From NCBI GenBank assembly GCA_963924565.1, contig OZ004608.1:11222001-11286000 (forward strand): a stretch of DNA of 64,000 nt, written 5' to 3'. The notes under the pieces were generated by a model, which was not told the origin of the DNA, made no database searches, and was given only the letters and a program-made list of their open reading frames with translations. Shown piece after piece: positions 48,901 to 51,900 of this stretch. Within the stretch, counting starts at the first letter, position 1, and the number at the start of each line of letters is the position of its first letter. This stretch comes from Ascidiella aspersa. Taxonomy: Eukaryota. The position numbers and the translations under genes are program-made.

Positions 48901-51900
48901 ATAAAAGATTCACTTTATTCGTTTGGTAAAATTGAATAAAACCAATGTACTTTTTGCAAAATCGCAACGTAAACCGTATACCACTTGTCTTATTTGTGTC
49001 CCGTAAAGTGTATATACTGGGAAAATGTGAGCGCGTGGTTAAGTTTAAAATCACAAATATCATGTATTCCCCTGGCGATACACAACAGTAAAGAGTCCTT
49101 AGCTGACCGTGGTCGTCACTCGTATGTGAGATTTTCAATTATAATTTACTTTTCTTGTGCTTTTTTTCGCCATTTTGTTTATTAAAAAAAAATTATAATA
49201 TTAAAAAACTGTACGCTCCGTAAAACGTCGTACTAAACCTGAACTTGCTTCCAGATACCAGTTCACCTCGGAGGTGTTGGACGCTTGCGACATCCTGGAA
49301 AAGCACCTCCGCAATCCAAAGTCTGTCGACAAAAGTGACCTTGTGAGTAATTAAATCCTGTTTTTCTTGTTTTCGTGAAAATTTGATAATAACCTTTTAA
49401 CATTTGGAAGGAAAATGGATAAAATATTTCCATTTACAGAGTTGGAAATTCGTCGTTGTGTGATTTATATATATTACAACTTTAGGAATCTCTTTCTTTA
49501 TATTCACGCTGAAATAAAACCGCGTTAAAAATACAATTTGGTTAGTTTTTTTGTTGGGGTTTTAATACCAATTCAAATACCTTGATCGATAGAAGTATTT
49601 TTGTAAAATGGCAAAGAGAAAAACGATTGCTTTTAAGTAGTTAAACCTTTTTTGGTATCCTTCGTTTTAAGGAAAATATGTTTTTTTGTTTTAGCGAAAA
49701 TTTGATAATGCCTAGCACTTTGACGGAAAATGGATAAAAATTTCCGCATGCATGTCTTCTGTTAAATGTAGCGGTAGGCTGAATTAGCGTCGAAAATCTG
49801 GCTAGTTTTTTATCAGGGTTTTGATACCAATTCGTTTTGTAAAGTTTAAGGCGAAAACAAATGATTGCTTTAAAATAGTTTCACCTTGATTTGGTAATGT
49901 GCAAATCCAAATTTAATCCCCCACATAATTTGTGGCCGCCAAAGATTAGCGGCAAACTTTTTTTTATTTTACTACGCCTGATAGCAACAGTTTAACCCTG
50001 AAGAAGGTGATTTGCATATGTTGCCGAAACGTTGGTCAAGAATTAAAATGACCAGAGGAGCTGTTTTTTGATTTGTATTAATCCCCCTTTTCCAGGGCCT
50101 TGCCACGACCTTGGTTCAGCAGGAATGGTTCCGTGTTGCCGCCTGCGCCGAATCGGCCAAGAGCAACCTCGACGATTTCGTCACCGACCTCGCCGACACG
50201 TCACTTCCGGTATTGCGCAAGGTCGTCAACATGACCGACGGCAGCGTAAGTCGAAACACACGCATTTCCAAGTTGAATTAAAAATTGAAAAAAAAATGTT
50301 AAATACATTACAATTATCGAATGAAATCTGAACACACATATGTATGTTTACAACTGAAATCTAGCCCTTCTGAAGCTGCTTTATTCAGTCTGCAATGGCT
50401 TTCGGTATACACATTACAATTAAACACTTAAAATAGCTTGTTTGTTAAATTACAAACAAAAACACAAAGAATATTTAATCATAATAAAATATACTGAGTA
50501 GCATGTAAAAATACTTGCATGTAGATTATCTATTGTAGGGTTACGCCTGTAACGCGCAAATTGCCGTTTAATATGTCCTGTGATTAACTTAGCTTAAGTC
50601 ATACTTCGATTGTGTGAAAAAAAAAATTGTCGAGTTGAAAACAAAAATTATTCTATTTTTTATCTCGAAAAACAAACGTTTTAAATATCCAACATCACTT
50701 TCTACCCGTGCTTGTTTTAAATGGTAGTTCTGGCAAAATGCTATAAAACAACCCAACCTCAAATACAAATACCCACATTGGCAGGGCAACACGGTGCTCC
50801 ACTACGCCATCTCGCACGGCAAGACCGACATCGTCGACCTGCTGCTTGGAATCGACGAGCTGAACGTGAACCGGGCAAACGAGTCCGGCTACACTGCCGC
50901 AATGCTCGGCGCCCTTTGTGGGCTCAGGGCAGGGGACGACGCTCGCATCGTGTCGCGACTTTTCGAGGTTGGTTTCAATCGCTTTTCTGTGTTTTTTTTG
51001 TGTGACAGATTTATTGAGCGAGTCGATCCCGCGGACTGGCTTTTTTTAGTTTTTCAGCTGCTTTGATAAACGAAAAACGATCTGCAGTCTGCGCTGAGAA
51101 CTTTTACCTAAAACTAACAAATAAATAAGACAATCTTAAAATAACGGCCGAAATTAGGCCCATCCATGGCCGAAACTGGTATTAACGGACCCTGGATGAT
51201 CATTTGTTTGACGTTTTTGTTACGAGGCACTTAGAGAAACATATTTTATTTTTACGTATTATTTTAAACTGTGGATTAAAAAAAAATACACTTAAAAATA
51301 AGCACTGAAGATGGCAGACCCATGTTAGTATATGGAACAGAATAGATAAAAACAAACAAATTAACAAATATTAACAAGTACCTCAAAACAAAAGTCGTAG
51401 AATTCTTGTCCCTTAATAGAAATTTCTCACGCAAAGGCCTATTTGTAGTATATTCAACAGAATATATAACAATACTCAAATTAAAAATAATAATACAATA
51501 AATATTAACGTTCCATAAAACAAAAAGTCATAGAACACCTGTCCCCTAATATAAATTTCTCAAGCGAAAGCTCAAACGCCAAAATAACAAAACAAACTTT
51601 GCAGAAATCGGACATCAACTGTCACGCGCGGGAAGCAGGCCAAACCGCCCTTATGTTGGCGGTGAGCCACGGTCGCCTGGCAACCACCCAGCTGCTGCTA
51701 CGTCACGGCGCTGAGGTGAACGCGCGCGACGACGATGGCTCTACTGCCCTCATGTGTGCGGCTGAACACGACCACCTCGAGATCGTCAAGCTGCTGCTCG
51801 CTCATCCGACTTGCGACGCGACACTGGCCGACAACGTGAGTGACTTAAATGTTTGAGTTTTCGAGCGACATTGACTTAAGTATTGAGTTTTTGAGCAACA

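Follow-up and report, generated by a model that had tools for sequence, protein, structure and literature searches.

The minimal type I hammerhead motif present in a KANK intron of Ascidiella aspersa, within the stretch of 64,000 nucleotides analysed here (the window), belongs to a short, 5'-truncated remnant of a Penelope-like element, in which it is very probably an inert passenger with no effect on splicing. The Penelope origin of the motif is confirmed, and a regulatory role for it is unsupported. The motif is a real hammerhead of a well-known kind, likely inactive at the KANK site, and is one of the hundreds of dispersed 3' ends of such an element.

The motif, the insert and the KANK intron

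The exons flanking the intron resemble KANK1-3 in the PDB, the following exon being ankyrin (Pfam), and the exon at 50788-50967 has KANK1 and KANK2 as best matches (E 5e-17). The KANK identity proposed in an earlier note on this DNA is thus borne out by two exons matching KANK proteins (50096-50245 and 50788-50967), and RNA reads join at the splice acceptor it had named (Table 1).

Several other features accompany this gene. The window also contains BRCA2 repeats (3-1769), a tyrosinase domain (5519-5875, minus strand), a sugar transporter (14346-14780) and an ankyrin protein (59945-60304) that looks tankyrase-like. At 48135-48433 there is a high-copy MITE-like element of about 300 bp, found in RNA, with 23-bp terminal inverted repeats (96% complementary) and ends resembling those of hAT elements. 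The KANK intron under study also carries an old internal duplication (49362-49890; several 24-29 nt blocks at 238-319 bp spacing), and the next one holds a second very high-copy short repeat (50298-50419; raw DNA depth above 1,100, against about 5 in the flanks). One read junction of this repeat enters a tRNA-like A-box, so that the repeat is perhaps a tRNA-related SINE. Finally, a 30-bp minisatellite (51823-52111) starts at the end of an ankyrin exon.

The motif has the CUGANGA and GAAA boxes of a hammerhead core, with U50032 as U16.1 and U50033 as H17, and a predicted cut at 50033/50034, after GUU, 62 nt upstream of the KANK acceptor at the intron end. Inspection of the sequence located the features ascribed to it beforehand: the core, a wobble-rich stem II, a stem I with one mismatch and an AACGUU palindrome, as well as the competing hairpin and the 3' splice site AG at 50094-50095. 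The hammerhead search that had been suggested, performed with a type I descriptor on both strands, recovers the motif as the single match in the window; 300 dinucleotide-preserving shuffles, also on both strands, gave one loose match in total, and in no case the 2-nt layout of helix III. No second hammerhead that could act as a cis partner was found by the descriptor in the 64 kb. A non-LTR retrozyme, in which head-to-tail units each bear a hammerhead, was considered and discarded on the grounds of this single motif. No Rfam family matched the window at gathering score and no hammerhead family matched 49500-50600 at E<=10, such scans being uninformative for minimal motifs. The minimum-energy fold of the window copy differs from the hammerhead fold.

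Table 1. Coordinates of the intron, the insert and the parts of the hammerhead motif in the window
Feature	Position	Strand	Basis or remark
KANK intron holding the insert	49343..50095	+	753 nt, GT..AG; joint 49342/50096 present in 5 RNA reads and one spliced contig
KANK exon, helices just before the canonical ankyrin repeats	50096..50245	+	KANK1 best match, E 0.004; spliced at both ends
Left 10-bp direct repeat, likely target-site duplication	49913..49922	+
Non-Penelope stretch of about 38 nt, 5' end of insert, likely template-switch capture	49923..49960	+	92% over 38 nt to L074
Penelope 3' tail, direct orientation, upstream of the hammerhead segment	49958..49994	+	82% to L048 tail
5'-truncated Penelope 3' end (pseudo-LTR stub, tail-less end, 84 nt)	49995..50077	+	85-87% to RT/EN-linked L051 and L048
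Right direct repeat, with branch-point-like TTAAT and start of pyrimidine tract	50078..50087	+
Minimal type I hammerhead motif	49992..50039	+	Sequence, descriptor and shuffles, stem II covariation across three families
Stem I, 5' strand, UUAACC	49992-49997	+
Core box CUGAAGA	49998-50004	+
Extra A	50005	+
Stem II, GGUGAU / GUUGCC	50006-50011 / 50020-50025	+	G-U in 3 of 6 pairs
Core box GAAA	50026-50029	+
C50030, G50031, U50032 (16.1), U50033 (17)	50030-50033	+
Stem I, 3' strand, GGUCAA	50034-50039	+	One A-C mismatch
Competing 7-bp hairpin, predicted to sequester the stem I 3' strand	50032..50055	+	Folding

The motif is part of an insert of 155 bp, composed of 38 foreign nucleotides, a Penelope tail and the hammerhead end, between 10-bp direct repeats. 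It reaches upstream to about 49923, an extent which, like the bounding repeats, the earlier note had overlooked. Judging from the sequence, the direct repeats are likely a target-site duplication (TSD): the 10-mer occurs only twice in the window, its right copy abutting the element end; recurrence at a distance of this order is seen for 0.1% of the 10-mers in the window; and repeats of at least 10 nt lie on the two sides of 6 of 28 other copies, compared with 1 of 112 shifted controls. The stub shows 6 differences from its nearest copies. The foreign stretch has no significant match to the Penelope loci compared, and its one other match in the genome is an unrelated place, L074. No RT/EN fragment was found in the 64-kb window.

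A direct upstream tail was found in none of 29 other copies, and the arrangement of the insert is uncommon in the genome but not new. For Penelope insertions, three papers (PMC8557442, PMC3846280, PMC11167929) describe tails at one end or the other, partial tandems, and captured sequence enclosed by short duplications. The complex insertions with TSDs of 8-10 bp (Arkhipova et al. 2013, PMC3846280; Craig et al. 2021, PMC8557442) share with the window insert the 5' truncation, the partial tandem, the tail and the unrelated sequence within the TSDs, whereas the window insert is a miniature of 155 bp.

The insert would have been formed as follows. The element endonuclease would nick an AT-rich site at the 3' terminus of the intron, and reverse transcription would copy 84 nt from the tail-less priming site, switch first to a 3' end bearing a tail (37 nt) and next, with a T-run at the junction, to a foreign template (38 nt), after which repair would duplicate 10 bp. 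This duplication would leave the host TTAAT, the pyrimidine tract and the AG together downstream of the insert. Branch points follow the consensus YTRAY, on which basis TTAAT is a candidate branch point. The insert would then be tolerated because the host 3' splice signals are likely intact downstream of it.

In X1 contigs the left junction appears on two haplotypes and the right one a single time, both junctions are contained in X2, and no empty site or joint skipping the insert is listed in X1, X2 or X6. The presence of the insert on both X1 haplotypes and in X2 fits drift, and also retention. From X4, labelled as another organism, only low-depth, near-identical pieces were recovered, which have no bearing on orthologues.

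The Penelope-like family and its hammerhead

A genome search with 49940-50075 returned 901 first-look candidates, 40 of which were scored to give 61 matches, and a strict core pattern has 265 exact genome matches (138 forward, 127 reverse), against 0 for the reversed control. Moreover, raw DNA read depth is about 470 on the motif and about 5 on its flanks, and contigs are likewise far deeper on the motif. The family copies have a common 3' end and variable 5' cut points; an optional tail of 30-40 nt comes after the hammerhead end in 28 of the 71 copies compared, and inverted ends are present in 10 of 29 other copies. The hallmarks of EN+ Penelope-like elements (PLEs), namely 5' truncation, inverted or tandem ends, an optional tail and a short TSD, are thus all represented.

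The longer copy L051 contains a 377-aa frame with RT motifs and GIY-YIG (Pfam E 0.0011, below the Pfam cut-off), and its hammerhead core begins 108 nt after the stop of this frame. L072, from a family 74% identical, has RVT_1 (E 3e-5, below the cut-off) and also GIY-YIG. The Atlas places the element protein, at 0.97, with eukaryotic RVT_1/GIY-YIG clusters, and no solved structure matching it was found. The one CxxC of the L051 frame lies inside the GIY-YIG region, which fits Penelope/Poseidon elements, where no zinc-finger linker is expected between RT and EN. The single ORF with RT followed by GIY-YIG that characterizes EN+ PLEs is found in sister copies, not in the window copy. Several such element families exist in the genome (at least 111 matches, 109 of 1051 candidates scored); an intact full-length copy of the window copy's own family is not among the matches listed from this scoring, made with a partial query. 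The earlier note had proposed a Penelope relic with a dimer-type minimal hammerhead and a genome search for sister copies beside RT/GIY-YIG ORFs; such copies exist, and together with the family membership of the motif they support the relic.

Two further groups of loci deserve mention. An open frame of 815 aa at L078 (864-3308, minus strand) belongs to a distant Penelope-like family (43% to L051) and is possibly an intact element; the descriptor found no hammerhead there, nor in seven downstream stretches of more distant element families. On contig 3 (7.68-7.79 Mb), L061 and L062 consist of 3.77-kb units that are nearly identical and stand in tandem; every unit contains a Penelope stub in inverted orientation and a hammerhead that is intact, and the arrays would put motifs in tandem if they were transcribed through. 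They were rejected as full-length tandem elements: lacking any ORF of at least 200 aa, they are tandem duplications with a short inverted stub.

At the family level the hammerhead is genuine. In three families, whose proteins are about 100, 74 and 62% identical to that of L051, the motif has the same place and the same 21-nt spacing, on different stem II sequences. In a 9-row alignment, both partners vary in 4 of the 9 stem II pairs and pairing holds in 92.6% of cells, against at most 46.5% in slid controls of the whole structure, a comparison which, the rows being related, gives support rather than a probability. The G10.1-C11.1 pair is present in all 9 rows, with the extra nucleotide after A9, and the ACGU of the palindromic 15.2-16.2 segment, which would form helix III in a dimer, is kept in 9 of 9 rows across the three families. 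Stem I has two invariant C-G pairs, a third pair broken in 5 of 9 rows and no covariation. The folding model, which ignores the core and tertiary contacts, predicts for it a probability near zero in the window copy and in the others alike (median of other copies 0.001), so that this low value does not single out the window copy. The stem I mismatch is not decay either, since it is a family trait: of 71 other copies, 67 lack a Watson-Crick pair at 49994:50037. When L070 and L088 are set against L063 and L076, the cleavage triplet is GUC in one sister family and GUU in the other two, and in all of them a CCAGA block lies downstream of the cut, at 20-25 nt. The competing hairpin was considered as a conserved family switch and is unproven as such: its variable pair is Watson-Crick in 13 of 72 rows, and one sister family can form it (-5.5 kcal/mol) while another cannot.

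Metazoan PLE minimal hammerheads, as set out in PMC4209133, share with the window motif the type I topology, the extra nucleotide between 9 and 10.1, the G10.1-C11.1 pair, a long helix II, a putative short helix I and the palindromic 15.2-16.2 replacing helix III. Nothing of substance differs in that account, except that decay has gone further in the window copy than in most members of its own family. The same paper reports thousands of solitary motifs derived from truncated elements (Cervera and De la Pena 2014, PMC4209133), with no detectable cleavage by single motifs and low cleavage by dimers. The Poseidon element PAc of Anolis (Frangieh et al. 2024, PMC11167929) resembles the present family in its C-terminal GIY-YIG after the RT, its pseudo-LTR hammerhead, its two preferred 3' ends, 30-40 nt of tail apart, and its AT-rich target; its hammerhead is described there as not cleaving without the element protein. 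In contrast to PAc, the window copy is an 84-nt stub plus a tail fragment only.

Decay of the window copy and splicing of KANK

The window copy was compared with 71 distinct copies from retrieved loci, a set in which good matches are over-represented. Of 68 near-fixed positions, 5 are changed privately in the window copy. One of these changes is at core position 7, which is free, and another perfects the competing hairpin; the remaining three (C-G to U-G twice, U-G to U-U once) all weaken stem II and none of them is compensated. Letters specific to the locus stand at 50008, 50011 and 50019. The sparing of the 11 core positions is compatible with chance (P=0.40), and the intact 11-nt core, found also in 55 of the 71 other copies, is therefore no sign of selection. 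Mismatch across copies was 2.3% in the core and 6.8% outside it, values not used because subfamily differences inflate the latter and copies were chosen by similarity.

Stem II of the window copy has a predicted energy of -5.0 kcal/mol (median -9.9), and is as weak in only 3 of the 71; the competing hairpin reaches -6.8 kcal/mol (median -2.5), is as strong in only 2 of the 71, and has a pair probability of 0.73-0.99 in four contexts and at two temperatures. The suspicion voiced in the earlier note, that the copy might be a decayed one, agrees with the three private stem II changes, the weak fold and the strengthened decoy hairpin. Helix III could be formed only with a second hammerhead or the element protein, neither of which would be on hand in KANK pre-mRNA, and a decayed stem II together with a hairpin predicted to capture stem I would lead to inactivity. 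A selected structure at this locus, in the manner of the co-opted CPEB3 ribozyme, was rejected on the basis of the three uncompensated changes and the P value for the core.

As regards RNA, 6% of the raw run X7 was read, giving a depth of about 5x. The sole joint listed from donor 49342 leads to 50096 (GT..AG) and is carried by 5 reads with 5 starts; read ends pile up nowhere in X7, and exon depth is 5.4 before the intron, against 4.6, 2.9 and 4.0 after it. All 12 RNA reads over 50019 bear the family letter instead of that of the KANK locus, and the unique intron sequence has zero depth; hence these reads come from other copies and nascent KANK RNA is unsampled. Further, X3 gave one unbranched contig of 1,793 nt with a uniform depth of 55, running from 45184 through the ankyrin exons across the 49342/50096 joint; X3 is not on record as RNA, yet it is spliced, and contigs drop rare variants. 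The data show normal splicing as the main outcome, at a depth at which minor cut or truncated species would be missed. The proposal that the motif cuts the intron, influences splicing or yields ankyrin-less transcripts is accordingly unsupported, the joints being normal and the fold weakened, with no partner in the 64 kb.

Alternative explanations and significance

The location of the motif, close to an acceptor, needs no special explanation, because 3-13 sense copies are expected by chance in the 60-nt zone before acceptors, an estimate made from 265-900 copies and an assumed 100,000-150,000 introns.

It is unlikely that the dead motif has been co-opted as a splice signal, the insert having displaced an upstream branch point and the TTGAT of the Penelope end (A 50071, at -25) supplying a new one. 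TTGAT is YTRAY-like and lies in the element end at a typical distance, the host-derived TTAAT being only at -15, and all three runs of DNA type contain the insert. Against this, the duplication kept the host TTAAT and pyrimidine tract, branch-like motifs are weak and variable in the 8 KANK introns inspected, and TTGAT is simply family sequence. Co-option in the broader sense, in which the stub either supplies a branch point or undergoes cutting in trans at times of abundant Penelope RNA or protein, so that transposon activity would be coupled to loss of the KANK ankyrin exons, is considered very unlikely.

Highly improbable is the cutting of KANK pre-mRNA in trans, by pairing of the AACGUU palindrome with a family copy or through the element protein, which would lower or truncate KANK. 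The core is intact, in sense orientation and upstream of the branch region, and family RNA is present from other loci; the intronic CPEB3 ribozyme (PMC10919898) and the protein-assisted Penelope hammerheads (PMC11167929) are precedents. However, the palindrome duplex amounts to only -3.5 kcal/mol, stem II is weakened and the decoy hairpin strengthened, no cis partner was found in the window and the joints are normal. In addition, the protein-binding part is probably absent from the 84-nt stub, and, as noted above, the matches listed include no intact full-length family copy as its source. CPEB3, the sole relevant precedent found in the literature searched on intron cleavage and splicing, is an HDV-like ribozyme which has in common with the window motif that it is of a self-cleaving class, in sense and in an intron upstream of an exon (PMC10919898). 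It differs in ribozyme class, in its measured self-scission and in its shown effect on mRNA, whereas the window motif, which belongs to a repeat with hundreds of copies, depends on a partner and exhibits decay, not conservation.

That the motif is a chance look-alike, as the Rfam result and the minimum-energy fold might suggest, is refuted for practical purposes by the 265 core matches, by shuffles of which 0/300 had the layout, and by three Penelope families in which the motif keeps its place and spacing and stem II shows compensatory changes.

The preferred reading is thus that of an inert Penelope remnant. If trans cutting of KANK pre-mRNA were true, a transposon ribozyme would be regulating a host gene, which would bear on the open question of the role of Penelope hammerheads in cells. 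As it is, the find carries little weight, since it adds a further truncated end of Penelope whose motif is already described. The small value of the locus is as a clean example, at the 3' end of an intron, of a Penelope insertion of 155 bp that has a tail, captured sequence and a likely TSD, and as an illustration of why such insertions can be tolerated.
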